This document shows, piece by piece, positions 3,501 through 55,972 of a stretch of DNA of 64,000 bases. The stretch is from a virus. Positions within the stretch are counted from its first letter, which is position 1. The number at the start of each line of letters is the position of its first letter. The notes beneath the pieces were generated by a model. The model had not been told where the DNA came from and ran no database searches. It saw only the letters and a list, made by a program, of their open reading frames with translations. The position numbers and the translations under genes were made by a program. The stretch spans positions 1-64,000 of IMG/VR virus record IMGVR_UViG_3300045988_146009, one strand, 5' to 3'.

Positions 3501-6500
3501 AACCGCGCTGGTTTCAACCGCATGATTCGCAAAGCCACGGGTGCTACCACCAAGGCCCCCGGTATTTTCGGAAAACTGGAAAGCTCTTTAGAAGGACCTG
3601 GAATCTTCAACCTCAAGGGTCTTCCCGGAAAGGAAAAGGCTATCTCTATTGCCAAGCAAGTTGGTCGTCTCTCTGCCTCCGCTGTTGAAGGTGGCACAGA
3701 AGAACTGGCTGATGAAGCTTTGCAGTGGGCATGGCAAACTCTTACCCAGCACGGGGAAATCCGTGAAGAAGATATTGCCAGTGAGCGTGACGTATGGGAT
3801 GCCGCCAGCAAGATTTTCATTCTCGGTGCAATCGGGGGCGAGGTTGGCCACGGCATTCAGGCCATGACTGCCCTCCCTGCTGAGGTTTCCAATAGAAGAG
3901 ACCAAGCCATCCAAGCCCAACAGCTTTATGGCGAAGCCATGAGGGATGCCCTGGATAGCGACGTAGAAGGAGCCAATACCGCTTTGATTGAAGCATTGAA
4001 GGAAGGACTGGAAAAGAGTTCTGCCATTGCGGATGCCGCCATCACAAGTAAGGAGGCCGCCATGTCGGTAGCTCGTAACGGACATATCCAGGCTGACGAG
4101 AATGTTATCAACGAATGGTCCTCCATGATTAGCCAGTTGCCGGATGGTGCCAGCGTTCAACTCAATAACTTCTCTGCTGAATACAGCAGGTTGAAAAGGA
4201 TTGGGGATGAAACGGGTGCGGCATCTCTGCATCAAGCTTTCGTTGAGGACATTGCGGCGAGTGACAACCTGTCGGACACCCAGCGTCAAATTGCAGGAGA
4301 GCTTATTCTTCAACTTACGCAAGGTACTCCTACCGCGGAGTTCGTGGAAGAGACATCTACCCAGGTGGTTCTGCCAGAGGGACTTGAAGAGTTGGCCGCC
4401 GTTGAAGTAGAAGAAGCCCCCGCCCCGGTAACGGAAGAACTGAAGCCCGAGGGGGACCTTGTTGAGCAGGAGGTTGAGGAAGAAGTTGTTCAAATTGGGG
4501 AACGTGACTACGGGTATAATGCCCCGAACCCGGTCCCCTTTGTTCAGATGCTTTCCGATTGGTACACCAGTGAGACCCCCATTACTCCCGAAATCCGGGG
4601 GGAAATGAACTCCGTGCTTACTGACCTGGAGCTTGAAGACCCCGACATTTATGACTTCATCACGGATGGTAAGGAAGAAGTGGACCGGGCTACGGTTCGC
4701 CGACTCCTCACGGTGGCTAACCTGACCGGACCTGATGGGCCCATCGCTGTTGACATGAAGGGGAACACTGAAATTCAGAAGGGGAATGCCCTGCTGACGG
4801 ACAAGACGGTATGGAGTAAGTATGACAAGAATGTCGAGATACAGGATTCCAACTGGGCCGCAGATGTGTTTAATATGGTGGGCGAAGGAATGCAACCTAT
4901 TCAAAACGTGCTCGACGATGTTCTCAATACTGTTCAGGATGAAAGAACCCGGAACAATATTAAAGACATTGTAGAGTTCCTTGAGGAACGTGGAGTTCCG
5001 GTGAGCGTGGCTACCATTCAGGGGGACAGCAACATTGCTGGTCTCACGATGATGGACCCGTCCTCTCCAGAACAGCATATCGCTCTGAACTTTAGCGCGA
5101 AGAATGTAAAATCCTCCCCTGCTGATGTCCTGCTCCACGAACTAACTCACGTTCTGGACAACCATCTGAGGGAGACAGACCCCCTGTATGCAGAACGCGT
5201 AGCAAGCATCGAAGAAATTGTCCGCTCCAACTGGGCCAACATCCAGAAGGAAGCGGAACGGGTGGCTCGCACTGCTGTAACTGAGGAGGAGCAGGCTGAG
5301 ATTGACCAGTTCATCGCTGAGATGGAACAGGCTTTGTTCAACAAGCAGACTGAGTTTGAGGGTGGACGTGAGTTCCTTCCTAATGTAATTACCAACCCCA
5401 TCATGGGAGAGGTGATTGCACAAGGCAATCTCCCGTTTGACCAAGCTCTCGACCAGTGGGCCTCCCCCAACAACCTTGCTCGAATCTCTCAGATTGGCAG
5501 AGGCAAGGTGAGCAGGATTGTTCATAACCTCATTAATGCTGTGTCCTCCATCCTCAAGGGTGCCCAGGTTGTTGAAGGGAAAGTTAATCCCAACACCGCG
5601 GTTATTCGTGTGGAAGAAGGAACCCTGGCTGACCCGACAAGGATGAAGATTGTCTCTCCGAAGCTGGCTGAATACAAGCCGGGAGTTGAAGACGAGAACG
5701 TATTCATTACGGACCGCGGCGTTGATGCCGCCCTCTTCTCGTCCTCTGAGAACTTTGTCGGAGCAGGGAAGAGACTATTCCGGACGGCGAATGTCAAGGG
5801 TGGATTCACCGCTGACAAACGTACTGGGAAAAAGGTTAAGGAATTCGCTGGTAACTTCCAGACTTACGTTAATGAACTTGTCGCACGAAACGAACGAACC
5901 AAGCGATATGTAACTCAGCAAACGAAGGGAATGGAAGACTCCGAACGGGCTACCGTCATCAACTCCATCGTGAACTACACGGGCGATTTGGGCAACACGC
6001 TCGACCCGAAGGTTACTCGCCGTATCTTTGCGGAGACTAACAACAAGGTCGAACAAGCCAGGGTGGCCAGGGAGGCTGAGGTGGACGCGGCGAACAATGA
6101 GTACGCCAAGTTCATTGCGGACCGGAGGAAGGCTATCATCCAGGCGGAGGCCAGGGTGAACGCCCTTGCCGGGACTCAAGCATTGCAGAATGTTGGAGTA
6201 GCTATTACCCAAGCTGTTCAGGTAGCTAAGGAAGTCCCCCAGGTGGACGAGAAGAACCCGATGGCTGTAGCCGCGGCTCGTTTCAGGAAGGCTCAGGAAG
6301 AACTCAACCCCGTGATGAAAGAGATTTACAGCACGTTGGACGAGGACGCTAAGGCCGAAATGAACGAAGCGTATGATAAGACCATGAAGGCCATTGCGGA
6401 AGACTTGGCCCAGGACTTCGACAACCCTGCTGAAATCGTACCGGGCCTTCTCAGTATCGGTGGACTTCAAAACGTTCCCAGTGTGGACGACTTGTCCGCA

Positions 6501-9500
6501 ATGTTCACTTCGGTCATCAAGGCCAACAGGCTGGGATGGTTGAAGAAGGATGCCGATGCTGTGCGTGCCGCCAAGGATATAACCGTAGCCCAGCAAGCCC
6601 GTAGAGAGCGCATAGCCCAAGCCGAAAAGAACTACCAGACGAAGGTAGGACGAGGAGGCATGAAGAATGGGGTATGGACTTCTCCTGGAACGGTATGGCT
6701 TGAGCGTGATGCGGCCATGCGTGCGGAGAAGAACCGGATGGAAACGGTATACGCCATGAAGAGGAATGAAGCCCGTAAGGAACTTCTCAAATATCCTTTT
6801 GGTGCCCGCCTGCTCAATGTGCTGGACGACAACCGAAGAGCTATTGCTACCATGGAAGCTAACCTGATGCAGAGAAGGGGTGCTATCGGACTCGGAACAA
6901 AGGTGAGGGACTTTACCTACCTCTCCCGAACGTTTGCCGCGGTAGGAAAGGAGTCCATCAACTTCCGTAAGGCCATGATGGAACTACTGGACAGCAACGG
7001 CGAAGTGAAGCCGGAGTTTACCCACCTTGTAGGTATCCTAAACAATGCAATCCAAAGCTACATGAGAGAAAACATCTCCCGTTACAACCGGGGTATTTCG
7101 GAAACCCTCGACAACATGCTTGCTATGAGCAAGGTAGCTGATGAACTTGGTCTGGACGGTAGTGAATACCTTGGCTTCAAGGGAAAGGATGTATGGAAGA
7201 ATGTAAGTGAATACCTGACGAAGGACCCGGCCCTGGCTGAGAGTGCTCTAAACACAATCAACAATGGTCACTGGAACGAGATTGCCAAGATGAAGGATGG
7301 CTCGGTTGAACTCCGTCTCATTATCAACAAGGCGAGCCAGCTAGATAACCTGCTCTCCTCTGCTGATGTTGGGGAGAAGAGCCGACTCCGTAGCAAGATG
7401 CGTAAGGCGAAGGCGGACCTGATGAACAAGGCGGCGGAAGACTATGTGCTTTCCAGTATGGGAGTAACCGATACTGACCTCCGCTCCTTCCTCCTCGGTC
7501 TAAATTCTCCGGAACAAATCACGGAAGCATTCAAATCAACTCCCTACCTGGACTCAAGTGTAATCTCCAACCTGATGGGAACGGATGAAAACCTCCGAAC
7601 CCGCATCAGCAACACCATGGATTATGTGAGAAAGTCCACCGCTATTGAAATGCAGAAGCAGGGGGTAAACCTGACCGCTAACCAGCGGGACATGTCCCTT
7701 CTTGCTGATGGTGAAGTAGCGGATGCCCTGATAGCTACCGCTCGGAATGTGTTCAAGGAGACCCTATCCAAGGAGCGTAACGAAGAAAACATCTTCGCCA
7801 ACCGTAAGAACCTGATGGATAGTGAACTTCAAATTCTTGGAGTTCGCGGGTTCAGTAATCTCACGGATGCCTTCGGTGTTATTCAAAACACCTTGTCCTC
7901 CCAGGGCAGAGCCTATGTCAACCAAGTAATTACGCATGACGTAGCAAGAAGCCTTGAAAGGCATGGGGTTGTTACCGGGGAGAGGACGAAGGAGAATACC
8001 CACCTGCTGGAATTCCAGAACAAGGCCAACCCGCTGAACGGAATGTATGCCGAAAGGGACATCGCCCTTGTCCTCTACCAAGCCATGCGACCTGACGAAG
8101 CAATTATGCGGGGTAAGGAATTTGGGAAGAAGTTGCAGAGCCATTGGGGTAACAACTGGGGAATGCTGAGAAGCATCGGTGGGTTTGTCTCCATGTTGAC
8201 CCTGGTCCGTACTCCCTCCGCTACCCTCCGTAACATGGCGGGGACCATGGGGCAAAGCCTGAACGCAGGTGCTCTCCCGTTTGACAAGGGGGTTATCAAG
8301 GGATATGGGGAAGTGTACCAGCTTGCCCAGGACTTCGTTGTTGCAAACATTCTAAGTGCCGCGGGTTCCGTTGGTGTGAGGGGTGCAGTGAACAGTGAGA
8401 TTATGGCGAACGCTGAGAAGCGATTCAACCAGTCCATGCAGAGGTATCGTGACCTTGGTCTGCTCGACGCGGGCGCGGCGAACTTCATGAAGGAACAGTG
8501 GAAGCAGGGGCTTAATGAAATGAGCCAGAAAGAGGGCAGTGAAATCAGCTTGCCCGACGAGGACGCAATGTTCTCTTCGCTCGTATCGGAACTAGGAGAC
8601 CGGAGCACTGCAAAGAAAGCGATGGACCTCGCCAAGCGCATTGCGTATGGTACGTTCGTTTCGCCTATGAGCGTTGCCGCTTCTGCTTACTCCGTCCCTG
8701 ACGTTATCGCCAAGATAATCCTCTTCAATGGGGAGAGCCACAAGGTAAGCAAGGTAGTGAAAGCCGAGCTCGCACAAGCTGAGAAGCTGAGTAGAGCAGG
8801 AAAGGAAGACAAGCTGACAAGCTACATGAAGGACGCTTTGGCCGCTAAGAAGGAAGGGACTCTTACTTCCTACATTGAACGTAGGGCGGCGGACAGGACG
8901 AAGAACCTTCTTCCCACGGGGGCAAGAACCCCTGACTGGGTGAATAAGGTAAGCATCTTTGGGATGCCCTTCTTCTCCTTCATGTACCACACTTGGCAGA
9001 GTGTACCTTACAGCATTGGCTACGGGATGGAAGAACTTCGCGCCGCAAGGTTTGCAACCAATACGGCAGATAAAGTCTCCCTCTACATGGATGCCACCCA
9101 AAAGTTTGGAGGTGCTATCCTGGGCCAGTATGCTATGATGGAACTGATGCGGTTTGCCCTTCCGATTGTTACTCAAGCAATCATGGGTATGGTCACGGGT
9201 GATGACGAAGAAGACAAGATGCAGATGCTCGAAGCAAGTTCGTTTACCCGTTGGCTTGCACGGAATGCTGGACTCTCCGCGGACTACGACCAGAACGGAG
9301 AACTCTTTTTCTGGTTTGACAAGGATAATGAAACCTTCATAGTCCAGGATGGTCAGTACCTTCTGCCATATAAGAGCCTTGGTGAAACCCTGGGTGCTAT
9401 TATCAACCTCGCTGGATTGAATCCTTTCTCTGACAAGAGTGAGGCTAACCAATTCGAGGATGACTACACCGCCCAGCTTCTGGATTATGTTCAGAGCACG

Positions 9501-10361
9501 GCTGGTTCTCCCTCCATGTGGATTCAAATGCTCATTGATATGGGTTCAAAGGAACCCCGTCAAAGCGCAGACCTGAAACAACTGGGTGGGGTATCAGCAA
9601 TCCCGGAAGCCTTTGGGAATGCCCTGCTCATGAGCTTAGGACTCCGCCCTTCTGCTGAACTTGCGGGAGGTAGGACGCTCGACTGGATGGAAAGGATAGC
9701 TACGACTGTAAAGGATAACCTCCCCCTATGGCCTACTCTGGTTCAGGGGGTGCAGACCTGGACAGGGATGAATCCGGATAGTGAAAAGGCAGGATGGTTG
9801 TTGAAGAACCTTGGCTTTGGTGTTCGTCGTCCCAAGAATATTAATGATGTCCTCCGGGACAGTCTTGCTAAAGGTAACAAGGACCTCTCCAATTCGTTGA
9901 AGAACCAGCGCATCATGGATACCAACCTTTACACGGCTGACCTTAGCGATGCAGAGTATGACAAGATTATCGAAGCTGATAAGGCTATGGTAATTGAGCA
10001 GAGTATTTCCCTCGCTAATAGGTTCCTGGCGTTGAAGGGGTTCCTCAAGGGGATGGGAGTCAAGGACGTTGACACGGTTCTTGAAGCATCTGCTCAGGAG
10101 GCGGGCATATCGTTGAAGGCTATGGATGACCTTATCTCTGGCCGGGCCAAAGACTTCATCTCTAACCAGAGGTTTGACAAGATTGAAGAGACGAGAGACC
10201 GCTTGCTTAACAGGCCCGGTATTACTCCGGAAGCTAAGAAAGCCATCCTCCGCCAGTTCCAACAAGCTGAGAAGGTGTATGACATCGACGCAGTAGATAT
10301 TACTTCCAGCTTGATTGAGCCGGATAATGTGGAGCAGGAGGTGAAGAGCCAGAAGAGATAG
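507..10361 (+). CDS. Giant virion-associated/ejected protein (3284 aa; probable true start at 591). It has an internal HExxH zincin-like motif and long Ala/Glu/Gln/Lys-rich helical regions. Candidate polyvalent/cargo protein.
   Basis: Uninterrupted 9.85-kb ORF. The motif LLHELTHVLDNH is at nt 5136..5150. No DxDGD or NADFDGD RNAP motif was found by eye. Every antisense ORF over this interval is shorter (longest 516 aa at 3588..5138) and treated as artefact. Confidence 0.85.
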   Translation: MVQKGHSLYGLCPFLFTREGLTNILYASMPNDTNQEPLTYRSFGPKNPQTEYYKQLGREQSQTRWQEGRQARAQEAQQTPLSEEAKFLDTLNKTFKQEEEASYTQEQRAYTQEQRAISAEDRGIRKEEKEESKKEKQASKRDKQIRDWLSGINTRTPGKSLGFSTEAEYEDYLTKTKPETLVDITKFKANDPEEIGRARSAVEEMGASLVLSGEHPQVAEGSFRSLEPQDKANRLLSKSKYGLTKTEDGSYVVDERFLARVNDPSTAGMGNENIARAIVNNLKSIISKEDERGRSDYLIPDVEEVTNLVRNARAKNRETYQEYEKIRERFAVPKGEEEQKAVAPEKVGEQNGGDSSRTQPTLVQHVLSEVDRFFTVNPEAMEYLNTLGAKTGEEIPGAIEDQKFREQARRGIELKDQLARAISEANPAIDLRTVRNELDDDALLYREAVSQFYGGEIPEEVSSAILNRTTQLAQQRQALVASDYAKAEKDAIAEHLKSLGLDEGVALSIGISGLTNRHIAESDTGMGTMRSAVNEALQQYQSGAGQLAASMSFGEQKGYRDPLSHMQWVNIGDGKIAYAFVDPGTNERVGNGFIVDFGNVDQQAKALGVSREAYLDNLALPFKMGNLNATDEANSLFAWDKLNGKLVENATAESTGGLAYYDNDLIERSVLRAVEAGAPAEVVDKYRENLLQLQKQNAKDMIDQMLGQYEAVANLVASDSKTLDILFPGIRLAMNAMHNDFRDYYAENKGKMTNEEIISSFLADEQNRQGFLAITMAGAKTVARYKAAAIGASQFVSEGSRIIGLGTGDPAKYNNMWENLHKEEQAINTITTRAGGVAEWGAEIGNVLLQIAETTTTGGIGGVSGRVGTMTGRLAKLFGEAVAFKAATPGTMRLGQVITKLGGGVERLVAGPGRAALTQASSRGSSLAISAKLFTDAAAPTFGEVSNATYNEEMARLAKDPATAGLPESVRMEMAQNVATTKGSIAGIGYGIFSTILNNRAGFNRMIRKATGATTKAPGIFGKLESSLEGPGIFNLKGLPGKEKAISIAKQVGRLSASAVEGGTEELADEALQWAWQTLTQHGEIREEDIASERDVWDAASKIFILGAIGGEVGHGIQAMTALPAEVSNRRDQAIQAQQLYGEAMRDALDSDVEGANTALIEALKEGLEKSSAIADAAITSKEAAMSVARNGHIQADENVINEWSSMISQLPDGASVQLNNFSAEYSRLKRIGDETGAASLHQAFVEDIAASDNLSDTQRQIAGELILQLTQGTPTAEFVEETSTQVVLPEGLEELAAVEVEEAPAPVTEELKPEGDLVEQEVEEEVVQIGERDYGYNAPNPVPFVQMLSDWYTSETPITPEIRGEMNSVLTDLELEDPDIYDFITDGKEEVDRATVRRLLTVANLTGPDGPIAVDMKGNTEIQKGNALLTDKTVWSKYDKNVEIQDSNWAADVFNMVGEGMQPIQNVLDDVLNTVQDERTRNNIKDIVEFLEERGVPVSVATIQGDSNIAGLTMMDPSSPEQHIALNFSAKNVKSSPADVLLHELTHVLDNHLRETDPLYAERVASIEEIVRSNWANIQKEAERVARTAVTEEEQAEIDQFIAEMEQALFNKQTEFEGGREFLPNVITNPIMGEVIAQGNLPFDQALDQWASPNNLARISQIGRGKVSRIVHNLINAVSSILKGAQVVEGKVNPNTAVIRVEEGTLADPTRMKIVSPKLAEYKPGVEDENVFITDRGVDAALFSSSENFVGAGKRLFRTANVKGGFTADKRTGKKVKEFAGNFQTYVNELVARNERTKRYVTQQTKGMEDSERATVINSIVNYTGDLGNTLDPKVTRRIFAETNNKVEQARVAREAEVDAANNEYAKFIADRRKAIIQAEARVNALAGTQALQNVGVAITQAVQVAKEVPQVDEKNPMAVAAARFRKAQEELNPVMKEIYSTLDEDAKAEMNEAYDKTMKAIAEDLAQDFDNPAEIVPGLLSIGGLQNVPSVDDLSAMFTSVIKANRLGWLKKDADAVRAAKDITVAQQARRERIAQAEKNYQTKVGRGGMKNGVWTSPGTVWLERDAAMRAEKNRMETVYAMKRNEARKELLKYPFGARLLNVLDDNRRAIATMEANLMQRRGAIGLGTKVRDFTYLSRTFAAVGKESINFRKAMMELLDSNGEVKPEFTHLVGILNNAIQSYMRENISRYNRGISETLDNMLAMSKVADELGLDGSEYLGFKGKDVWKNVSEYLTKDPALAESALNTINNGHWNEIAKMKDGSVELRLIINKASQLDNLLSSADVGEKSRLRSKMRKAKADLMNKAAEDYVLSSMGVTDTDLRSFLLGLNSPEQITEAFKSTPYLDSSVISNLMGTDENLRTRISNTMDYVRKSTAIEMQKQGVNLTANQRDMSLLADGEVADALIATARNVFKETLSKERNEENIFANRKNLMDSELQILGVRGFSNLTDAFGVIQNTLSSQGRAYVNQVITHDVARSLERHGVVTGERTKENTHLLEFQNKANPLNGMYAERDIALVLYQAMRPDEAIMRGKEFGKKLQSHWGNNWGMLRSIGGFVSMLTLVRTPSATLRNMAGTMGQSLNAGALPFDKGVIKGYGEVYQLAQDFVVANILSAAGSVGVRGAVNSEIMANAEKRFNQSMQRYRDLGLLDAGAANFMKEQWKQGLNEMSQKEGSEISLPDEDAMFSSLVSELGDRSTAKKAMDLAKRIAYGTFVSPMSVAASAYSVPDVIAKIILFNGESHKVSKVVKAELAQAEKLSRAGKEDKLTSYMKDALAAKKEGTLTSYIERRAADRTKNLLPTGARTPDWVNKVSIFGMPFFSFMYHTWQSVPYSIGYGMEELRAARFATNTADKVSLYMDATQKFGGAILGQYAMMELMRFALPIVTQAIMGMVTGDDEEDKMQMLEASSFTRWLARNAGLSADYDQNGELFFWFDKDNETFIVQDGQYLLPYKSLGETLGAIINLAGLNPFSDKSEANQFEDDYTAQLLDYVQSTAGSPSMWIQMLIDMGSKEPRQSADLKQLGGVSAIPEAFGNALLMSLGLRPSAELAGGRTLDWMERIATTVKDNLPLWPTLVQGVQTWTGMNPDSEKAGWLLKNLGFGVRRPKNINDVLRDSLAKGNKDLSNSLKNQRIMDTNLYTADLSDAEYDKIIEADKAMVIEQSISLANRFLALKGFLKGMGVKDVDTVLEASAQEAGISLKAMDDLISGRAKDFISNQRFDKIEETRDRLLNRPGITPEAKKAILRQFQQAEKVYDIDAVDITSSLIEPDNVEQEVKSQKR
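519..552 (+). terminator. Putative intrinsic terminator hairpin (8-bp stem with one mismatch, T-run)
   Basis: GGGCACAG...CTGTGTCC followed by TTTTCTCTTT. It lies inside the 5' end of the longest version of the giant ORF, which suggests the real start is the ATG at 591. Confidence 0.4.
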
Positions 10362-11920: not shown

Positions 11921-11974
11921 TGTTACTGGACTATAGCAGGGGAGATTAAAATGTAAAGGGTCTCTTGTGTCATA

Positions 11975-12012
11975 CAAAATAAAACCCCAGGAACGCGCCA
12001 ACGTTCCTGGGG
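11975..12012 (-). terminator. Minus-strand intrinsic terminator (11-bp perfect stem) followed by TTTTATTTTGTATGACACAA
   Basis: CCCCAGGAACG-cgccaa-CGTTCCTGGGG. On the minus strand a T-run follows, then the recurring GTATGACACAA motif. Confidence 0.65.
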
Positions 12013-12043
12013 TAGGTGTATTCATGTATTAGCCGCAAAAATT

Positions 12044-21065: not shown

Positions 21066-21905
21066 CTAATCTTTTTTGTCTTGTGTCATACACCAATTAA
21101 ACGCCGCTTTACCTTGTTCAGAAATGGCCCATGGACTAAAAGAACGGTGGACAATACGGGGGCGGGTAACCACTTCTGCTAGAATACATCCATCTTCTTC
21201 CATGCTTTTATTACAATTGCATGGCATAGGGGTTCCCTTGCATTCTCCTCCCCTGTTTTTACGAATATGGCTCTCATAATCCATTGTTAGTAGCAATTCC
21301 TTTAACTCTTTCATGGCCTTATAATTATGGATAGGGTAAGCCATTCGCAAAGAGGTAGAGCTAAAATTCTCTGACTCTAAATAGATTGTGAGATAAAACT
21401 CCTTATTCTCCGTGTTTTCCGTAACGTGTGCAGTATACACGGCTTCCTCACCCTCCAAAATGTTCACAACGTCAGCCTCATACTCAATATATTGAGTTTC
21501 AGGGAGTTCTTCCGTTTTTGCAGGTTGTTTCGGAGCGTCCTTAATGGGCGTAGCGTACACATCAACCGTTGCACAGGGGAGGCCAAAACAGGGATATTGA
21601 TTAAAAGAATCCTCCGTTCCCTCAATTTCGACAATTACCTTCCATTCAGCGCGGAAATCGTCAAGTTCAGCGCGGTCTTCCTCGCTAAGTTCGCCTTCAT
21701 CATCTCCATACCCCATTAAATAAGGGAATGCCCATTGAGGAACGCCCTCAACCCTTTCGTAACTGTCTGACGTTTCATCCGTTTCAGATAAGATAATGTA
21801 CGTACTTCCGCAATGGGGGCATAGTCCGTTTAGAGGCGTAACGCTTCGGTTATCGCATTCCATGCAGTCATATTTTTCGTTTTCGTCGATAATAACAGTG
21901 CTCAT
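21066..21905 (-). CDS. Hypothetical protein with an N-terminal zinc ribbon (CMEC...CPHC), 279 aa
   Basis: ORF. The conserved 5' leader repeat lies upstream at 21906..21975. Confidence 0.6.
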   Translation of the reverse strand: MSTVIIDENEKYDCMECDNRSVTPLNGLCPHCGSTYIILSETDETSDSYERVEGVPQWAFPYLMGYGDDEGELSEEDRAELDDFRAEWKVIVEIEGTEDSFNQYPCFGLPCATVDVYATPIKDAPKQPAKTEELPETQYIEYEADVVNILEGEEAVYTAHVTENTENKEFYLTIYLESENFSSTSLRMAYPIHNYKAMKELKELLLTMDYESHIRKNRGGECKGTPMPCNCNKSMEEDGCILAEVVTRPRIVHRSFSPWAISEQGKAAFNWCMTQDKKD

Positions 21906-22029
21906 TTTTATGTTTTCTATTTTAGTTTGTTGGTTGGTTGCGGGGTTGTGTTCCCCTTACGCAATCCTTTATATTATATTAGAGGGGAAACGCAAGGGAA
22001 ATGTTCATGCCTTGTGTCATACTTAACTG

Positions 22030-22332
22030 TTAAGGCTTTACGAGGTATTCTTTATAAATCTTCAACGCTTCTCCATGCGTTCTTGGTGCTTCATTCCCAT
22101 CTATGGCTCCCCACATGCTTAATATTTCAAAGTTCGTTTCCGTCCTTTTCATGGACAAAACGGCATAAATGTTATACTTTAGTTGTCCATCTTTCCGGAA
22201 AGCCTTGTCTTTAGGTATGTCATTGTCTATAGCTAATGGGCCGTTAAACGGTTGCTTGAAAAACTTAAATTCCGTAACTTCCTCATTTGCATAGGGGTAC
22301 AAATCTTTCGTCCAATAATATACTTTTTTCAT
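22030..22332 (-). CDS. Hypothetical protein (100 aa)
   Basis: ORF. The perfect palindrome GTTCCACGTGGAAC lies 10 nt upstream of the start. Confidence 0.5.
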   Translation of the reverse strand: MKKVYYWTKDLYPYANEEVTEFKFFKQPFNGPLAIDNDIPKDKAFRKDGQLKYNIYAVLSMKRTETNFEILSMWGAIDGNEAPRTHGEALKIYKEYLVKP

Positions 22333-22376
22333 TTTAGGATTGTTCCACGTGGAACATTTTAGTTATTGATTTGTGA

Positions 22377-22946
22377 TTAGGCGGTTATAGTCTTTTTGAC
22401 TGATAGAGTCAAATGGTAGCGGGTAAAACAAGCTCCTGTATCCGAATCATAAGAACAATTGGCCCGCAACTCTTCATGTTCTGCTTCAACCATTTCCGCT
22501 AGTTCGTTAGGCGAACAATCCAGAACAGGGGTGTACGCCTCAATTTTGGTGAGGAAAAAGTTGGCTTCAATTTCTTTTGTCTTCCCTCCGTTCTTTCTTA
22601 CAAGGTTTTCCACCGTGCCTAGTGCCGCGGTCAGAATCTCCTTGCGTTTATCCTGCAATATGGTAATAATCGCAAGCGGCTTTCCTTCAATGCGTTGGAT
22701 ACGGGAACAAACCAAAAAGCCTTGTTTGTGCAATACATTTAAAGCAACGTCTTTTTTGTCCACCGGAACGGCAATGCGTCGAATGTTGTGCTCTACCTGC
22801 TTCTCCGTTGCTGATTGCAGGTCATAAACCTTACAACCTAAGCCTGTTAAGGTATTCAGGATGATTTTTGAAAAAAAGTCTTTACGCATCTTTTTGAATA
22901 AGCCATGTTGTTTCGGTAGTTTCCCGGTCAAATCCAATGCTTGCAT
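22377..22946 (-). CDS. Hypothetical protein (189 aa; start possibly at 22889)
   Basis: ORF. The long form overlaps the 22882..23115 ORF. Confidence 0.5.
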   Translation of the reverse strand: MQALDLTGKLPKQHGLFKKMRKDFFSKIILNTLTGLGCKVYDLQSATEKQVEHNIRRIAVPVDKKDVALNVLHKQGFLVCSRIQRIEGKPLAIITILQDKRKEILTAALGTVENLVRKNGGKTKEIEANFFLTKIEAYTPVLDCSPNELAEMVEAEHEELRANCSYDSDTGACFTRYHLTLSVKKTITA

Positions 22947-23115
22947 AAGACGGCCCTACAAAGTCACTGACTTCACGGACGATTTTAATGTCTGGACCTG
23001 CTTTAGCTAAAACCCTTAATAGCAGGTTCTTTCCGGGTTTAAAAGAGAGTTCTACTTTTTCAACTCCTTCCCGGTTGTTCAAATGGCTTAATGCTTCAAA
23101 TAGTTTCTTGTTCAT
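22882..23115 (-). CDS. Hypothetical protein (77 aa)
   Basis: ORF only. Confidence 0.4.
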   Translation of the reverse strand: MNKKLFEALSHLNNREGVEKVELSFKPGKNLLLRVLAKAGPDIKIVREVSDFVGPSYASIGFDRETTETTWLIQKDA

Positions 23116-23120
23116 GTTTT

Positions 23121-23537
23121 TTATGCGTTAAAGTTAAAGGCTTTTTGAATATTTTTCCCCTGTACCGTTACGGACGTGAGGGAATACATTTTATACTGCA
23201 ACATGTGTATGTTTTGTTCAGACTTTAGGGCAAGGATTTTTGAATCATACTTGTTTGTCTTATCAATCGCCACCTCTACCACGGCACAATAGGCAAACCA
23301 TAAGAGAGTTAATGCGCTTGCGTAAACTCCAACGATACAAAAAAGCTCCGTTACGTTGGTTCCGTTGTAAATCTTGGTTGCCAAAATGATGACAAGAATA
23401 AAGGCAAGCCATGCAGAGATTCTTTCAAAGTTCAATCCATCCAAGGCCCTATATATTCCCCGCCACCTTTTAAATGAGCGGGTGAGTTCCGAAATCTCAC
23501 GGGCGTGAACAAAGCTAGCGTAAAAAGCGTATTTCAT
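23121..23537 (-). CDS. Integral membrane protein (2 TM helices), 138 aa
   Basis: Hydrophobic stretches WLAFILVIILATKIY and LFCIVGVYASALTLLWFAYCAVV. Confidence 0.5.
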   Translation of the reverse strand: MKYAFYASFVHAREISELTRSFKRWRGIYRALDGLNFERISAWLAFILVIILATKIYNGTNVTELFCIVGVYASALTLLWFAYCAVVEVAIDKTNKYDSKILALKSEQNIHMLQYKMYSLTSVTVQGKNIQKAFNFNA

Positions 23538-23542
23538 AAATG

Positions 23543-23743
23543 TTAGAAGTTAAGGGCCGATATAAAACGCTTCATTTCAGCGATAGAGGTGCATTCAAAT
23601 GTTAGTGCTGGATTCCAATTTGAGCGGAAAATAAATCCTCCCTCCGTTTTCTGAACATAGGCAAAGGTGGAGAGCAATTCTTCCCTATCATGGATAAAGC
23701 TATTTTCCAGTCTGTCCAGAGCATCAATGTCTTTCTTATTCAT
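23543..23743 (-). CDS. Hypothetical small protein (66 aa)
   Basis: ORF. Conserved leader AACTAAAATAGAAAAATG. Confidence 0.4.
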   Translation of the reverse strand: MNKKDIDALDRLENSFIHDREELLSTFAYVQKTEGGFIFRSNWNPALTFECTSIAEMKRFISALNF

Positions 23744-23855
23744 TTTTCTATTTTAGTTTTAGGCGGTTGCCTCGTTACGTGTTTCTTTATAACATTTTTG
23801 AGCAGGTAAACAAGGAAAATGTTCATGCCTTGTGTCATACTTCACTGTTAATCAG

Positions 23856-24191
23856 TTATGCAGAAAAATTAAAATTTAGCATATCCGGGTGCGTGGTAAA
23901 TTGTAGTTGTCTATCCTCAAAAATGACAAATCCTAAGATGTTGCTATCAATACTCATTCTCTTTTTTAACTCTATAGCGAGATTGTGGAGGACGGTATGC
24001 CCGCATAAGGTCCACGCTAGCATTGCGTGGCTTACAAGCTCCCCTGCATCATTCCGGGTTATGGGGTGGATGTGGATGCCTTGTCTTCCAACGTCATCAT
24101 ACAAGTCCCACAACATAAATTGGTTATCATACACAATGCAATCCGGGAAAATCTCCTTCAAATCCTGCAAATATTCTTTTATTTCTTTCAT
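23856..24191 (-). CDS. Hypothetical protein (111 aa)
   Basis: ORF only. Confidence 0.5.
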   Translation of the reverse strand: MKEIKEYLQDLKEIFPDCIVYDNQFMLWDLYDDVGRQGIHIHPITRNDAGELVSHAMLAWTLCGHTVLHNLAIELKKRMSIDSNILGFVIFEDRQLQFTTHPDMLNFNFSA

Positions 24192-24218
24192 GGTTCTATG
24201 TCTTTCTAATTTAGGGGT

Positions 24219-24554
24219 TTAAACTAAGTCAATAGCGCGTAAAAACAAACGCTTGTCATGGTCAAAATAGGTCCACCCGTACTTTCCGAGGTTGTATCCG
24301 GCTACTTTCCTATCTCCATGTATCCGGTGAGGCATCCATTCGACACTGATATTTTCTTCCCCTACCCCGTGGATGACGGCATGAGTTCCTTCCTCCATCA
24401 ATTCCCGGAGGGTTCCGAAACGGACAAAACTGCGGGCAACTTGGTAGTGTGTATGACCTTCCTTTTTGTAATACTCTTCTGCAAACTTATGCAGGCCCTT
24501 GCTTGGTTTTTGTATGATTATCATTGTTTTATGTCTTTCCAGTTTATTTTCCAA
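24219..24554 (-). CDS. Hypothetical protein (111 aa)
   Basis: ORF only. Confidence 0.5.
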   Translation of the reverse strand: MENKLERHKTMIIIQKPSKGLHKFAEEYYKKEGHTHYQVARSFVRFGTLRELMEEGTHAVIHGVGEENISVEWMPHRIHGDRKVAGYNLGKYGWTYFDHDKRLFLRAIDLV

Positions 24555-24831
24555 GGGATATTTTAGTAAGGGCCTCCCTCATTTTCTCCATGCTAGCGGC
24601 GTATATAAAATGACGCACAAGGGGAGTTGCATCCGTGCGGGTTGCAAGATAACCTAACCCTGTTTTATCAATCCAATAAGGCACTGATTCCAGAGTTATC
24701 CTTGCCCCTTCTGCCCCTAATTTTTCCAGCTCCAATAGTGCTTTTAAATCGTTGGATGTTAACATTTTCTTGTATCTTTCTATTTTAGTTCGTTGCTTGG
24801 TTGGTTGTAGGGTTGTGTTCCCCTTACGCAT
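24544..24831 (-). CDS. Hypothetical protein (95 aa)
   Basis: ORF. The conserved 50-nt leader lies upstream at 24832..24860. Confidence 0.45.
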   Translation of the reverse strand: MRKGNTTLQPTKQRTKIERYKKMLTSNDLKALLELEKLGAEGARITLESVPYWIDKTGLGYLATRTDATPLVRHFIYAASMEKMREALTKISLGK

Positions 24832-24911
24832 TCTTTATAGCATCTTTGAGCAGGGGCACAAGCGTTTTATTTCACGTTTGTGTCATACAAAATTGTTCCA
24901 CGTGGAACTTT

Positions 24912-25604
24912 TTATCTCTCCGCATGTTCTTTTACCTTGTCACGTTTAACCAACGGCAAGACGGGAGGAAACACCCCGCTTGCGTAGTCCTCCCGGCTAA
25001 CTCCCTGCCAAGCATAACCTTTGTATGTAGGCTGACGGCGTTTTACTACGTTGTTAATTCCAGCCGCTAACCCCTTTACCGCCCGCGCCGCATCCCAGTA
25101 ACTAGGATACATGGTGATAGGCTCCAGGGTTTCCCGGTTTATCTGCATGACGGGCCGCGCGGATTTGTGCAATCCCTTTTCAATGTTCCCCTTCAATGTC
25201 TTTTTCCGTTTTTTCACGCAGTTACCGTAACGTATGTTTTCCCGGTGAGTACACCATTGCAGATTCTCCGCACGGTTGTTCATGGGGTTTTCATCTAAAT
25301 GGTTTACATCTAACTCGCTTATTTTGTACCCTTTAAGATGCGCGCCTAACGGCACAAACGCACCCGCAACAAGGCGATGAACATAATATTTATAGTGCCA
25401 TCCTCCCTTTTCATCCAGCAAGGGAACATATTTATAACCGTTCCGGCTAGTCTGGATGCGTAAAAGCCTGTTGACAAGCTTGCTCCACACCGCGCCCATG
25501 TTACTCACAAGGTACAATTCCCTGCAACCTTTCAGCGGTACAGGTTCCCACAGTTCCCCCGGTCTAGTACATTCAGCTAGTGTCTTCTTCTCCTTCTTCT
25601 TCAC
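24912..25604 (-). CDS. HNH homing endonuclease (HNH_3 core plus a C-terminal AP2/NUMOD-like DNA-binding region)
   Basis: Motif LDVNHLDENPMNNRAENLQWCTHRENIRYGN. The C-terminal part carries YKGYAWQ. Confidence 0.7.
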   Translation of the reverse strand: MKKKEKKTLAECTRPGELWEPVPLKGCRELYLVSNMGAVWSKLVNRLLRIQTSRNGYKYVPLLDEKGGWHYKYYVHRLVAGAFVPLGAHLKGYKISELDVNHLDENPMNNRAENLQWCTHRENIRYGNCVKKRKKTLKGNIEKGLHKSARPVMQINRETLEPITMYPSYWDAARAVKGLAAGINNVVKRRQPTYKGYAWQGVSREDYASGVFPPVLPLVKRDKVKEHAER

Positions 25605-25789: not shown

Positions 25790-25835
25790 GTCTCCTTTAT
25801 ATAGTAGGCACGCCGTTTTTCAAGCTTTTTGTGCG

Positions 25836-25871
25836 CCATTTCCCCGCTTTTCAAGCTTTTTATAGTGTACC
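25836..25871. promoter_or_regulatory. Direct repeat TTTTCAAGCTTTTT x2, 22 bp apart, at the left edge of the control region
   Basis: Read directly. Candidate promoter or operator element for the leftward block. Confidence 0.35.
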
Positions 25872-26199
25872 GCAATTGTTGCGTTAGCCCTAAAAACTGC
25901 ACCATTACTGTTACTTTTGGCTTTCTTTGGACTTTCTCCCGAATTCCTTCGCACAGAAAGGGGCCTATAAGGGCCTTTTGAGCAGGGAGCCTTACTATTA
26001 TACCCGGCGATTTTGCCCGCCCGTATACGCAAACCTCATGCGTTTTATTTTCGCCAATTCCGCACTTTTCGCCCTAAACGTACTAAGTGCACCTAAAATG
26101 GTACATAAATCATCCATTCGTAACGGAAAGAGTACTATTCACTTTTTATACAACTGTATACATTCTGGCATTTCGTACCGTTATAGGTACTGGTTCGTA

Positions 26200-28110
26200 T
26201 CATTTCCGTGCTATACGCCCTAAACGGTCTTCCCGTTCGTGTAGGGAGTAATGGGCATTTCGTCCTTTTCGTTCGTGTAGGGCGTGGAGTCTGCTACGTC
26301 ATTCCGGTCCATGTAGTGCATTCCGTTCACTTCGTTCTTCCGTCCTTCTGGTCCATGTAGTTCGATTAGGGCGTGTAGTGCGTATAGCTCCATCTAGGGC
26401 ATTCCATCCTTTCAGTCCCTATAGTTCGATTAAGGCATTCCGTTCACTTCGTCCTTTAAGTCCGTATAGTGCGTTTAGTGCGTTTAGTGCGTTTAGAGTT
26501 TTACATTTTTGTAAAATATCAACATATCATGATGTGTAAATATGTTGTTTCCTATTGACCCCTTCACTACATATCGGGGCATATAATGGGAGAGACACAC
26601 TATATGTAGTGTTCTCTGCTCTATCAGGCACCAATCATTTTGACGAATATCAAAATGTAAAACTAAAAATTTATACGTTTGAGAGGTTTTGTATAAAGAT
26701 TATATACACTTGTATACAAAGTGAGAGTAAAAGGTATTTGTTTCCCATTGGCACCATACATCATGTAGTGCCTATTGGTTACGGGAACACTACATACAGG
26801 AGTCATGATAACATATCTACATATCATGATATGATGATGTTTTACATTTTTGTAAAACTAAAAGGAGAGAAGCCTCTTCTGTTTCCTATTGACCCCTTTA
26901 TATTTCAGAGCAGGGAAATTCCAACACTCCGGACTTCACGCACTAAACGTCACTTTACGTTCTAAGTCAACACGTTACGCATATCCGCAACCGATTAGGC
27001 ATTACAAACGTTTCTCGAAATTATCTCTTAAAAAACAAATGTTATTTCATAGTACGTATTGATTATTAGGGACTTACGTTTTCAATGTCGTACATAAACG
27101 TAATGATAATATTAGTTCAGAAAGGTACGCTATCGGCGTAGAATACAATAAGCCCCCTGAAAAAGGTACTTGAATCGGTGCATTTCGAGCGTGAAAATCG
27201 CTTAGAACGTGAAGGACACCACGACGGTGACTCCCCCTTCGAGCGTAACGCGCTCATTAGTAAATCATTAGGTCACATTTTTCCGGAAATGGGGTTTCTG
27301 CTTTTTCAAAATGGGCCCCATGCCGAGGGGACACCACGGGTCTCGATTGCCTTTTCCTGCTCCGGCGTGGGCCTAAAATAGGCGAGAGGGGGTACGTATG
27401 GACAGACTGTACGTGAACGGGGGTGTGAGGGGCCTTCTATGGGCCTACGCATAGGTGAGTGCGGTTGAGGTCATTTAGCCCGGAAGGTCCATATTGGGAT
27501 GGAAATTCCTGAACTATTTTCATAACTGCCTCAGTGATAATCATTTTATGGAGCAGGGAAGTCCAAATAATCCGATTGTGTGATGATGTGTATATTTTGA
27601 ATACGAGATAACTTCACTCTCCAGGTTACGCCCTAAATCCTTAATTTTTAATAATATATAAATACTGTGTACTATGTAATATCTAATTACTATATAGAGG
27701 TATAAAAATATTTATTATTTAATATAAAAATAATACCAAAAAAGAAAAGAAGAAAAGACGAAATTGAAAAAGTAAAAAAAAATAATTCTAGGTCTATATG
27801 GGGGAGGGGGGAATAACAACACACACTATGCCCCTTTTTTTCACTGCTTGTATTTACATATTAAAGGGTTATGGTGTGAAAAGACACGTAAATATCGTGA
27901 ATACGCATCTGCACACTTTTTGATACAGTAACACAAGTTTTCACCACGTTATCCCAAATTTATACCTGTTTTAACCCCATTTTGTACATTACCATTATAT
28001 CTTGGGATATTCTGTTATTCTCTAAAAAACACCAAATCGAATCGCCCTACACGCCCTAATCGTACCTAAGCGGACCCTATCGCACTCCACGTTCTCTACG
28101 TCCTCTTCCT
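26200..28110. repeat. Complex non-coding repeat region, candidate replication origin and divergent control region. It holds iteron-like direct repeats, nested inverted repeats and small palindromes.
   Basis: Direct repeats: CGTTCGTGTAGGG x2, GCATTCCGTTCACTTCGT x2, TGCGTTTAG x3 in tandem (26470..26496) with an inverted copy at 26939..26949, and GTTTCCTATTGACCCCTT x2 (26547 and 26881). The palindrome TTTTACATTTTTGTAAAA occurs twice (26499 and 26839). A 16-bp inverted pair CGATTAGGGCGTGTAG (26353..26368) and CTACACGCCCTAATCG (28047..28062) flanks the region. No credible ORF lies anywhere in it. Confidence 0.6.
27641..27795. other. Extreme A+T-rich tract (~155 bp), candidate DNA-unwinding element, followed by the G-tract GGGGGAGGGGGG
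   Basis: Direct reading: taatatataaatactg...aaaaataataccaaaaaagaaaagaagaaaagacgaaattgaaaaagtaaaaaaaaataatt. Confidence 0.5.
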
Positions 28111-28173
28111 CCCAAAACCCCCTCTTCGCCCCTCTCCTCCCCAACTTTTTCTCTCCGCACACGCAAATTTAGG

Positions 28174-28202
28174 TTGACTCTTTCTCTGCTACCTGCTATA
28201 TC
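28174..28202 (+). promoter_or_regulatory. Sigma70-like promoter TTGACT-N17-TATATC upstream of the primase gene
   Basis: The hexamers are read directly, about 80 nt upstream of the ATG at 28282. Confidence 0.45.
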
Positions 28203-28281
28203 TCTCCCACACGCGAAGGACCTGTTTTACCCCTTCGCACCACCAAATGCCACATCCTATGTGGCCAAACACTAATCGAAC

Positions 28282-36105: not shown

Positions 36106-36390
36106 ATGAACCAACGAAAGAAACTTCAAAAAGAACTTACCGCCAATCGGATTTCAATGCGCCACCTGAGACGGTTGGCGTATAGTCTTGAATCCAAGGG
36201 AGATTTAACCGCTACGCAGTGCATCATTGTAAACAACAAGATTCCCCTTTTCTTCAATTTCTCTCCTTCCATTCCCGTCAACTTCAAACCCATCTACCCC
36301 TTCATTTACAATCACGCTTATTGGATGAAGGACAAAAAGGACTGGGCTTTGACCTGCTACGAAGACGACAGTTATGCTTACAATAAATAG
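36106..36390 (+). CDS. Hypothetical protein (94 aa)
   Basis: ORF. It overlaps the HNH gene start by 17 nt. Confidence 0.4.
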   Translation: MNQRKKLQKELTANRISMRHLRRLAYSLESKGDLTATQCIIVNNKIPLFFNFSPSIPVNFKPIYPFIYNHAYWMKDKKDWALTCYEDDSYAYNK

Positions 36391-37114
36391 TATGGATACT
36401 TCTAGTGAAATATGGGGGATTATTAAGGATTTCCCGAATTACAGTGTAAGCACTTTAGGAAGAGTAAAAAATAACCTTAGTGGGAAATTGTTGTCACTTT
36501 CAACTTCTCAAGGAGGATATTATTTTGTAGCTCTATATCGAAATAATGGTGGAGATAAAAAATATCTTCGGGTAAATCGTCTGGTGGCGATGACGTTTAT
36601 TCCGAATCCTCATAATAAATCTCAAGTAAATCATATAGATGAAAATAAAAAGAATAATAGATGGGATAATTTAGAATGGACTACACCTACGGAAAATAGA
36701 AATCATGGGACAAGTATTATTCGTTCAGCAAAAAGTCTCAGTCCCGCGGTTGTCCAATATTCTTCAACAGGTTATTTTATTGCAGAATACCCAAGTGCTG
36801 TGGAAGCAAGAATAGTTACAGGAGTATCTAATTTAGCCATTGCTAAATCATGTAGAAAAGAAAGGGCGATGGGGGGAGGCTATCAATGGAGAAAAAGGGA
36901 GGATGATTACCCTCTTCAAATTGAATCCGCAGTTGGACCTATTAAAGCGATACTTAAATATAGCCCTACAGGGGAACTTCTTTGGATATATTCAAGTATA
37001 AAAGAAGCGAGCGAAGATACCACGGCTACTCTTTCAAATATTGTAAGTAATATAAAAGGAAGGAAGAGTGTAAAAACAGTAGGGGGCCACATTTATAGAG
37101 AGGAAATAGTATAA
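36374..37114 (+). CDS. HNH homing endonuclease with an N-terminal NUMOD4-like motif
   Basis: N-terminal WGIIKDFPNYSVSTLGRVKN, then HNH_3 core NHIDENKKNNRWDNLEWTTPTENRNHG. The codon usage is AT-rich and unlike its flanking genes. Confidence 0.7.
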   Translation: MLTINSMDTSSEIWGIIKDFPNYSVSTLGRVKNNLSGKLLSLSTSQGGYYFVALYRNNGGDKKYLRVNRLVAMTFIPNPHNKSQVNHIDENKKNNRWDNLEWTTPTENRNHGTSIIRSAKSLSPAVVQYSSTGYFIAEYPSAVEARIVTGVSNLAIAKSCRKERAMGGGYQWRKREDDYPLQIESAVGPIKAILKYSPTGELLWIYSSIKEASEDTTATLSNIVSNIKGRKSVKTVGGHIYREEIV

Positions 37115-43096: not shown

Positions 43097-43756
43097 ATGA
43101 ACATACAAGACGCAAAGAACACGACTACTCTTCAATCAGAAAGGACCAGCAAAATGGAAAGGCTGGCTCAGAAGGCGGTAGCTTTCTACAGGAATGGTGC
43201 CCCCATGGATGTCATCGAAAAGGTGACTGGCCTTAAAGGGAAAGACCTTGACAATATCCTTTCGGAAGTTGAGCTTACTCCTGATGAACTGAGGGTGAGA
43301 GACGAGCTGGCCATGGCCTATCTCTCTAACACCACCAGCAGGATTCAGAAAAGGAGGGACGAAATCTCAAAGGAGAAGTCCCGAATTCTGGAAGCAATCT
43401 CCGGGAAGGCATCCAACCTTTTGACGAGCGGTGTGTCCAAGCTACTGAACTTTGTAGAGGATGTTGAACTCTTCGATATGAAGGATGCCGAGAAGCTTAT
43501 ACATGTCCTCGAAAAGGTGAATGGACTGACAGATAAGCTCCATGAAGGACTTATCAGAGCGGACCAGAATATCCTCAGTGACATTGTTGAGAGTATCCGA
43601 ATTGAACAGACGGATACCACACGCCAGATGATTCTGGACGATACTGATGAAGATGGAAGGGTTCTGCTTGATGGAGATGGCAGGAGGAAAAAGACCCGCG
43701 TCGTAGAAGAAGAAAGTGTTCAACGAGTGGTCGGCGTAAACGTTAAACCACTTTAA
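43097..43756 (+). CDS. Hypothetical protein (219 aa), acidic and helical. Possibly a small terminase-like or other packaging accessory protein.
   Basis: ORF overlapping the terL stop by TAATCATG. The N-terminal region has an HTH-like stretch. No motif was recognised. Confidence 0.6.
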   Translation: MNIQDAKNTTTLQSERTSKMERLAQKAVAFYRNGAPMDVIEKVTGLKGKDLDNILSEVELTPDELRVRDELAMAYLSNTTSRIQKRRDEISKEKSRILEAISGKASNLLTSGVSKLLNFVEDVELFDMKDAEKLIHVLEKVNGLTDKLHEGLIRADQNILSDIVESIRIEQTDTTRQMILDDTDEDGRVLLDGDGRRKKTRVVEEESVQRVVGVNVKPL

Positions 43757-43764
43757 CAGGAGAA

Positions 43765-43796
43765 GCCCCGTCTAGTAGGCGGGGTTTCTTTTTTGT
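43765..43796 (+). terminator. Intrinsic terminator followed by TTTTTTGTATGACACAACAC
   Basis: GCCCCG...CGGGGT stem, then TTTCTTTTTTG. The GTATGACAC motif overlaps the ATG of the next gene. Confidence 0.55.
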
Positions 43797-51746: not shown

Positions 51747-52355
51747 ATGTCAAATCAAGTTGTACCCCCTTATCCCAGTGAAGTAACAACCGTTACTCTC
51801 GCTCAAGCTCAGGCTGGAATTCAGATTGCGGTTAATCAACCTGTTTCTATTACCGGGTTGACCGCCAATACCCGGTATCGAGTCACCTGTATTACCGACA
51901 AACACAGTACTATCAAAGTAGCTACCGATGGGTCCACTGTAGCCGATGGACAGATTAGCGGCATTCCCGCTTACATTTCTCCCGCCGCAACTACGGCCAC
52001 CATTACTGTAACCACGTTCGCTACTACGGTCGCCACGTTAACGGTGGAAGCCGCTCCTATTGCCGCCCCAACAGACGTAACCCTCCCCTCCCTTCTTACC
52101 CCCAATGTAAGGTATAAAGTCACTGGTGCTCCAGGTGCCAACGTTCCTTTCATACTTTCTTTGAAGGCACCCTCCGTGGTTTCCCTTTTTGTGTCATACC
52201 TTTCCTCTGATGGGAGTGTGGTATTCAGGGATGTTGTCATTGGTATGAATGAGTTACGAAATTTAACGAACCTCGGCAAGGGGGACATCCTCCTCTATGT
52301 TGATGGAGACAGTCAGGCCGAAGTGAATTTTTCCTTTACACCTGCCGCTCCGTAA
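51747..52355 (+). CDS. Virion protein with Ig-like/beta-sandwich repeat modules (202 aa)
   Basis: Thr/Val/Ala-rich beta-strand patterns (TATITVTTFATTVATLTVEAAP). Repeats are shared with the next gene. Confidence 0.55.
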   Translation: MSNQVVPPYPSEVTTVTLAQAQAGIQIAVNQPVSITGLTANTRYRVTCITDKHSTIKVATDGSTVADGQISGIPAYISPAATTATITVTTFATTVATLTVEAAPIAAPTDVTLPSLLTPNVRYKVTGAPGANVPFILSLKAPSVVSLFVSYLSSDGSVVFRDVVIGMNELRNLTNLGKGDILLYVDGDSQAEVNFSFTPAAP

Positions 52356-55931: not shown

Positions 55932-55972
55932 GCAACCCCGCTTTGTATGACACAGAGCGGGGTTGCTTTTTA
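55932..55972 (+). terminator. Intrinsic terminator whose loop carries TTGTATGACACAG
   Basis: GCAACCCCGCT...AGCGGGGTTGC, an 11-bp stem, then TTTTTAT. Confidence 0.6.

Follow-up and report, generated by a model that had tools for sequence, protein, structure and literature searches.

What is the function of a perfect 14-bp palindrome that occurs twice in the early gene block of a human-gut phage? The locus lies in IMG/VR virus record IMGVR_UViG_3300045988_146009, of which we analysed positions 1 to 64,000 (the window); the phage has a 68.8-kb genome that has been assembled repeatedly from human-gut metagenomes. The original prediction took the palindrome, GTTCCACGTGGAAC, for the binding site of a dimeric repressor or activator and suggested that its two copies mark a small regulon. 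As judged by sequence, the palindromes are parS sites of the chromosomal type, the centromere sequence that is bound by ParB, and the repeat is a new example of a known site type and probably not a new phage regulon.

Identity and conservation of the repeated palindrome

Exactly two exact copies of GTTCCACGTGGAAC were found in the window, at 22342-22355 and 24895-24908, both in the early block as had been predicted, and none of 100 dinucleotide-preserving shuffles of the window yielded even one copy. A random-expectation frequency across the genome, which would have spoken against a functional repeat, was not observed: the complete 68.8-kb genome contains two sites in total. No third copy with two or fewer mismatches was present in the 64-kb window or in the remaining 4.8 kb of the genome, and when three mismatches were permitted in the window just two extra matches appeared, which is the chance level. 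The two sites are spaced 2.55 kb apart and both are intergenic. Copy 1 precedes the ATG of the minus-strand gene at 22030-22332 by 9 nt. Copy 2 is located 3 nt past the stop codon of the minus-strand HNH gene at 24912-25604 and 6 nt ahead of the motif GTATGACACAA (24878-24888, minus strand), which heads a promoter-like cassette.

The conserved unit is longer than the 14-mer that was first reported, and the two copies have most of a 23-nt unit in common (Table 1). The biologically meaningful unit is a 16-mer, which reads TGTTCCACGTGGAACA in copy 1 (parS-1) and TGTTCCACGTGGAACT in copy 2 (parS-2). We regard the 16-bp palindrome TGTTCCACGTGGAACA as the real unit because the free position of the search pattern TTGTTCCACGTGGAACNTTTT was A in 75 of the 91 sites that this pattern matched in IMG/VR. 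The flanks common to both copies most likely reflect common descent of the copies, since bacterial parS sites do not, as a rule, show conservation beyond the 16-mer. Half-sites of the parS type were not enriched in the window (17 compared with 16.8 expected, i.e., the chance level).

The sequence TGTTCCACGTGGAACA has been published as the chromosomal parS consensus of Pseudomonas putida and P. aeruginosa. Upon comparison with this consensus, copy 1 was identical at 16/16 positions and copy 2 at 15/16; copy 1 was one base apart (15/16) from the consensus of Myxococcus xanthus. Both window sites are 16-bp inverted repeats that fit the parS consensus tGTTNCACGTGAAACa, and in every half-site the departure from the idealised TGTTTCACGTGAAACA is confined to the variable position, which is N in the Bacillus subtilis consensus. 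In particular, the half-site GTTCCAC has G1 and A6 in four of four half-sites (reference half-site GTTTCAC), and these are the parS-type bases that separate parS from Noc-binding sites (NBS). The NBS, TATTTCCCGGGAAATA, are also 16-bp palindromes and are recognised by a ParB paralogue, but they contain A1 and C6 in place of the G1 and A6 of the window sites. Noc has been described as confined to Firmicutes.

The same organisation, with both intergenic placements retained, was shared by 21 strain contigs, and parS-2 was present in every strain contig covering the region. A variant with 95.7% identity (L257) keeps copy 1. In another relative (L258), a short contig from a different sample, the 170-aa protein encoded beside copy 1 is 79% identical, and a perfect TGTTCCACGTGGAACA follows right after its gene. 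Superposition of L258 on the window revealed an 18-nt indel upstream of parS-1 and the absence of the entire 100-aa gene downstream, with the 16-mer unchanged. The site in L258 is followed after 24 nt by a GTATGACACAA cassette homologous to that at window 22012-22022. This arrangement indicates that both copies originally lay just upstream of a GTATGACACAA cassette, at spacings of 6 and 24 nt. More relatives were reached via TerL plus one walking step; IMG/VR contains approximately 36 of them, most of which come from a single gut dataset. One relative with a TerL of 61% identity, IMGVR_UViG_3300045988_126878 (L091, = L017), contains one perfect intergenic parS at locus position 1558, 8.4 kb upstream of TerL. 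The genomic position of this site is not that of the window sites, which suggests independent gain within the family.

A scan of IMG/VR for TTGTTCCACGTGGAACNTTTT revealed 88 loci with 91 sites in 57 unrelated flank contexts. The flanks of these loci were unrelated to the window and mostly unrelated to one another, and 25 of the 88 loci had two or more parS-type sites. As a control we used TTGTTCCAGCTGGAACNTTTT, in which the stem, loop size and tail are kept and the central CG is swapped to give a CAGCTG core; this sequence was found at 0 loci, compared with 88. Because the CAGCTG control was not found, we conclude that selection acts on the CACGTG-centred sequence and not on structure, as would be the case for a protein-binding site. 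Taken together with the shuffles, the occurrence of the motif is above chance and sequence-dependent, as expected of parS. Many of the multi-parS viral loci are phi29-like, and so are the commonest families near parS in other viral contigs, in line with the published use of parS and Spo0J by phi29. Loci L047, L070, L083 and L078 each contain four to six perfect or near-perfect parS 16-mers within 6-13 kb, and pooled open reading frame (ORF) scans of the multi-parS loci (L083 excluded) were dominated by protein-primed DNA polymerase B, the phi29 major capsid protein and the Gp16 ATPase. One parS-adjacent gene in another viral locus matched a crAss-virus capsid family. A combined pattern of parS and GTATGACACAA gave 0 matches in IMG/VR, and in the JGI metagenomes it gave a single, apparently bacterial contig without similarity to the window.

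The exact 16-mer was also found in at least 120 stretches of bacterial genomes from many phyla. Among the matches listed, 34 of 120 stretches had two or more exact 16-mers within 8 kb, and Bacteroidota accounted for 16 of 80 records, including gut Bacteroidales and a Bacteroides metagenome-assembled genome. In five of six Bacteroidales loci the 16-mer directly adjoins mnmG/gidA, a classic origin-proximal gene, and near-consensus copies are often close by. ParABS homologues and parS clusters have been reported in gut Bacteroides. Similarity between the window and the Bacteroidales parS loci ends at the motif. We also considered an extended, Bacteroidota-specific TTTT flank as a sign of host mimicry, but this was unsupported, as the flank was found at 3 of 23 Bacteroidota sites and at 9 of 92 others. 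As evident from these results, the idea that the palindrome did not arise by chance and is bound by a dimeric protein is supported, whereas a private operator of a small phage regulon is unlikely, since the sequence is a canonical parS found across phyla and in unrelated viral contigs.

Candidate binders of the two sites

Pfam and/or PHROGs scans of the 68.8-kb genome (ORFs of at least 150 aa) revealed no ParA, no ParB and no other partition protein that binds DNA, and the adjacent parA and parB genes of a self-contained partition cassette were likewise not found. The early-block proteins were additionally scanned with NCBIfam and were equally negative for ParB, ParA and regulators. The original prediction had expected candidate small DNA-binding proteins in this block; the family scans found no helix-turn-helix (HTH) or other DNA-binding regulator family among its proteins. 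The 4.8 kb outside the window contain four genes without family matches and no further parS.

Because the phage encodes neither ParB nor ParA, we propose host ParB as the binder. No ParB family was among those listed for parS-neighbouring genes in other viral contigs. The binder common to all these unrelated phages is most probably host ParB. The host is probably a gut Bacteroidota, as Shine-Dalgarno motifs are scarce and the source is the human gut; such motifs precede 9 of the 70 window genes, and the leaders are A/T-rich and G-poor. A cognate ParB, which the phage lacks, would be that of this presumed host group, in which Bacteroidales carry the identical 16-mer by mnmG and gut Bacteroides have ParABS. 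We therefore favour, as the probable but by no means assured explanation, that the two sites are orphan loading sites for host ParB that help genome positioning, partition or silencing in a Bacteroidota host; we infer both the binding by ParB and its physiological role.

According to this proposal, host ParB dimers would recognise both sites on the phage DNA inside the cell, bind cytidine triphosphate (CTP) and close into clamps, which would slide across the 2.5-kb early module and towards the adjoining putative origin. The phage genome would thereby be marked as an origin-proximal piece of chromosome, and host ParA, possibly with SMC, would position and partition the replicating or dormant phage genome. 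In a host that forms no spores, the phage would benefit from being inherited stably, without integration, as the cells divide, a so-called carrier state. As a secondary effect, ParB could damp the early promoters immediately downstream of each site. Such repression of adjacent promoters by ParB is plausible; both copies ancestrally had a promoter cassette just downstream. The variable spacing (6 vs 24 nt) speaks against a phased site of the classical operator or activator type.

Several points weigh against loading of host ParB. Two sites are few for a centromere, and Bacteroidota do not sporulate, so the rationale known from phi29 is not directly transferable. Most early-block proteins are ORFans, and a cryptic phage-encoded binder could therefore exist. 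Additionally, the host of the phage, like the ParB binding, is something that we infer. In the closest IMG/VR relatives, whose TerL is 76-80% identical, the early region is devoid of parS, and a parS lies within 10 kb of TerL in only 1 of 36 relatives; on these grounds the trait is lineage-specific, conserved where present and dispensable for the phage family.

It is unlikely, in our estimation, that the palindrome is instead the operator of a phage-encoded dimeric regulator, i.e., of an ORFan early protein controlling a small regulon, with the parS identity being coincidental or due to a cryptic diverged ParB- or KorB-like protein. Such an operator would be in keeping with the position of both copies, which sit, or ancestrally sat, just upstream of GTATGACACAA cassettes, and nearly all of the neighbouring proteins are uncharacterised and could hide the binder. 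However, identity to a universal host motif at 16/16 positions would be a most improbable coincidence, given that the shuffles produced none, and the 57 unrelated viral contexts with the same sequence cannot share an ORFan regulator. The family scans detected an HTH or ParB domain nowhere in the genome. The cassette spacing of 6 nt in one case and 24 nt in the other, the fact that a whole gene can intervene and the presence of four sister cassettes without the palindrome also argue against an operator.

We consider it very unlikely that the palindrome acts through RNA or DNA secondary structure, as a weak and possibly bidirectional intrinsic terminator or as an insulator between early operons, with protein binding being irrelevant. 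Copy 2 is directly upstream of GTATGACACAA, a place that is held by strong terminators at 11976-12020 (minus strand) and 43750-43796 (plus strand). A simple scan flagged both copies on the plus strand and copy 2 on the minus strand, and the folding z-scores were -2 to -3.9. Nevertheless, the hairpin has 5-6 bp and about -7 kcal/mol, compared with -24 kcal/mol in the two genuine terminators of this phage, and neither copy 1 (AAUCCUAAA) nor L258 (AAUUUCAUA) has the U-run on the coding (minus) strand. The distribution in IMG/VR also contradicts a structural role, as the CAGCTG-core palindrome with the same stem and tail was absent while the CACGTG form occurred at 88 loci. An intrinsic terminator was thus rejected, because the sites lack a stable GC-rich stem with a U-run and only the minimal pattern scan flags them. 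No Rfam family matched at the sites.

Finally, we regard it as very unlikely that the sites are functionless passengers, i.e., an undecayed fragment of a host origin region or a short duplication gained by recombination in a hypervariable early region: the early block is indeed highly variable, the nearest IMG/VR relatives share only the DUF6926 gene and have no parS, and the flanks shared by the copies (22/23 nt) suggest duplication, but no host-like sequence surrounds the sites, similarity to the Bacteroidales parS loci stopping at the motif, L258 keeps a perfect 16-mer though both flanks were changed by indels, two independent intergenic placements are kept in 21 strain contigs, and the strong excess of the exact motif across unrelated phages argues for selection.

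Surroundings of the sites

The features around the two parS sites are listed in Table 1. Between approximately 11.4 and 25.8 kb, every gene is encoded on the minus strand.

Table 1. Sites, genes and sequence elements in the early region and copies of GTATGACACAA in the window
Feature	Position	Strand	Description
parS-1	22341..22356	.	TGTTCCACGTGGAACA; perfect 16-bp palindrome (16/16); intergenic gap between the 170-aa and 100-aa genes
parS-2	24894..24909	.	TGTTCCACGTGGAACT; perfect 14-bp core, 15/16 compared with the 16-mer; between the HNH gene stop and a promoter-like cassette
23-nt unit common to both copies	22339..22361 and 24892-24914	.	ATTGTTCCACGTGGAAC[A/T]TTTTA; 22/23 identical
100-aa ORFan gene	22030..22332	-	Between parS-1 and the 21957..22022 cassette; no family or PDB match; missing in relative L258
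170-aa ORFan gene	22377..22889	-	Lies upstream of parS-1 and ends 21 nt from it; without family or PDB match
HNH/NUMOD4 homing-endonuclease-like gene	24912..25604	-	Stop codon 3 nt from parS-2
Module (2.5 kb) bracketed by the two parS sites	22357..24893	-	Seven small ORFan genes in two transcription units; internal cassette at 23830-23840; no family matches
Promoter-like cassette downstream of parS-2	24834..24888	-	GTATGACACAA at 24878-24888, TTGTGC at 24856-24861, 16-nt spacer, TATAAA at 24834-24839
Homologous promoter-like cassette	21957..22022	-	GTATGACACAA at 22012-22022; in L258, 24 nt after parS-1
GTATGACACAA, exact copies	11965-11975(-), 21081-21091(-), 22012-22022(-), 23830-23840(-), 24878-24888(-), 43795-43805(+), 52189-52199(-)		
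GTATGACACAA, one-mismatch copy	55945-55955	+	Within a terminator loop
Non-coding repeat-rich region (2.5 kb)	25790..28281	.	No credible ORFs; between the divergent early (-) and replication (+) blocks

Homologues of the 170-aa protein were limited to two protein clusters among 5.8 billion sequences, and PDB sequence searches with both neighbours of copy 1 (the 170-aa and 100-aa proteins) gave no match. For the 73-aa and 170-aa proteins, AlphaFold2 (AF2) models reached predicted local distance difference test (pLDDT) values of 55 and 59, respectively, which are too poor for use. The phage contains two NUMOD4+HNH_3 homing-endonuclease-like genes, one at 24912-25604 (minus strand), which abuts parS-2, and one at 36374-37114 (plus strand), between the DNA polymerase and helicase genes; in the nearest relatives a homologue is present only at the latter position. 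We also examined a coding reading of the palindrome, in which copy 1 gives AAA ATG TTC CAC GTG GAA CAA TCC TAA, a mini-ORF encoding MFHVEQS; it was rejected because copy 2 has no ATG. This parS-1 mini-ORF of seven codons (22333-22359, minus strand) is probably incidental; its stop and the start region of the 100-aa gene overlap (TAAAATG).

The motif GTATGACACAA was over-represented in the window, with 14 matches at one or fewer mismatches compared with 0.8 expected; seven of these were exact. At six places it heads a promoter-like cassette consisting of GTATGACACAA, N7 or N16-17, TTGnnn, N16 and TATAAA, TATAAC or TATAGT, for which a promoter function is presumed from the sequence. The copies at 11975 and 43795 come directly after a strong terminator. 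The motif was absent from the TerL-flanking loci of the relatives (these loci being the scope of the search, and not the early-block loci L125-L128), and is possibly an upstream element of promoters, or one for a regulator, that is specific to this phage. Additionally, a 48-nt leader segment, at 21922-21969 and 24789-24836 (minus strand), is 85% identical between two early transcription units. It contains TTGCGTAAGGGGAACACAACCCnnCAACCAACCAA, followed by AACTAAAATAGAAA ahead of the ATG, with a GGGG...CCCC hairpin inside, and may be a shared element of the 5' untranslated region.

The two parS sites lie 0.9 and 3.4 kb away from the repeat-rich non-coding region, which contains four copies of the 9-bp repeat AGTGCGTTT at 26459-26496, short repeats of the GCCCTAAACG type, inverted repeats around ATATCATGAT at approximately 26512-26841 and an extremely AT-rich tract at approximately 27640-27800. 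This region is a putative replication origin with divergent promoters.

The phage encodes a family A DNA polymerase, a primase-helicase and a 3284-aa protein; the ORF of the last (507-10361, plus strand) had no PHROG match. A megablast search of 20-28 kb against cultured phages gave no match, and tblastn with TerL and the 424-aa (capsid-sized) and 761-aa (portal-sized) proteins found none among 50,697 cultured phage records. The DNA polymerase gave only approximately 24% identity, and searches for related loci with the 170-aa, DUF6926 and primase proteins found none. As far as these comparisons reach, the phage belongs to a deeply uncultured lineage without a cultured relative. Another contig, L129 (ENA ERZ1755985 NODE_498), followed the phage at 99.99% identity into a 454-aa phage gene and diverged from locus position 16145 onward, where bacterial genes with 41% GC follow (Bac_transf, an HtrA-like protease and GlmS). 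This contig may be an assembly chimera, or it may span a true junction of phage and host DNA, which in that case could point to the host.

Comparison with known systems

The resemblance of the window sites to the chromosomal parS of ParABS systems (consensus tGTTNCACGTGAAACa, Pseudomonas type TGTTCCACGTGGAACA) includes the identical 16 bp, G1 and A6, the intergenic position, the presence of more than one copy within a few kb, close to what may be an origin, and the occurrence of the same 16-mer beside mnmG in Bacteroidales. In contrast to chromosomal sites, the phage sites number two and lie on a 68.8-kb genome without its own ParA or ParB.

ParB-family proteins such as KorB and P1 ParB silence transcription at or near their sites. 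P. aeruginosa ParB has been reported to silence transcription at or near parS3/parS4 (PMC5521831). The phage is similar in that a promoter-like cassette follows, or once followed, directly downstream of each parS, and spreading ParB could repress early genes there. It differs in that the distance to the cassette varies and four sister cassettes are without parS, and regulation in the phage is conjectural.

The plasmid-prophage partition cassettes, P1 parABS, N15 sopABC and mycobacteriophage parABS, have their own ParA and ParB and non-chromosomal centromeres. They share with the arrangement proposed here the use of cis-acting centromere repeats for inheriting an extrachromosomal phage genome. 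Unlike them, this phage has no par genes, and its site is the host chromosomal consensus. An integrase or lysogeny module was not seen in this phage.

If host ParB does load on the two sites, this would provide a concrete mechanism for the persistence of apparently virulent gut Bacteroidota phages in dividing hosts, and the phi29 paradigm, in which host centromere sites are present on a lytic phage, would reach a non-sporulating phylum. The IMG/VR survey hints at orphan parS in many unrelated phages (57 independent contexts, compared with 0 for the matched control). A broader notion, which we put forward tentatively and hold to be doubtful, is that orphan host-type parS represents a widespread phage "centromere mimicry" beyond phi29, in which the ParB-CTP switch, loaded beside the origin and the early promoters, would here tether and partition the genome, damp early transcription and set a long-lived carrier state of virulent gut phages. 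Phage parS could also aid host prediction, since only hosts with ParABS qualify, and would lend itself naturally to the imaging of phage genomes by means of fluorescent ParB.

The closest precedent is the virulent Bacillus phage phi29, which has been reported to contain five parS sites that are bound by the host Spo0J (ParB), whereby the genome is carried into the forespore. As in phi29, the phage described here has several host-type parS sites (two) and no ParB of its own, and the proposed logic, i.e., hijacking of the host segregation machinery, is the same. In contrast, this phage is unrelated to phi29, has a genome of approximately 69 kb and a family A DNA polymerase, and contains two sites and not five, both of which are in the early region; its host is likely a non-sporulating Bacteroidota, and the benefit would therefore be other than entrapment in the spore. 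Host-type parS on a virulent phage without ParB was thus already known from phi29, and what is new is that it also occurs in an uncultured phage of the gut, which probably infects Bacteroidota, and in dozens of further unrelated contigs from viruses.

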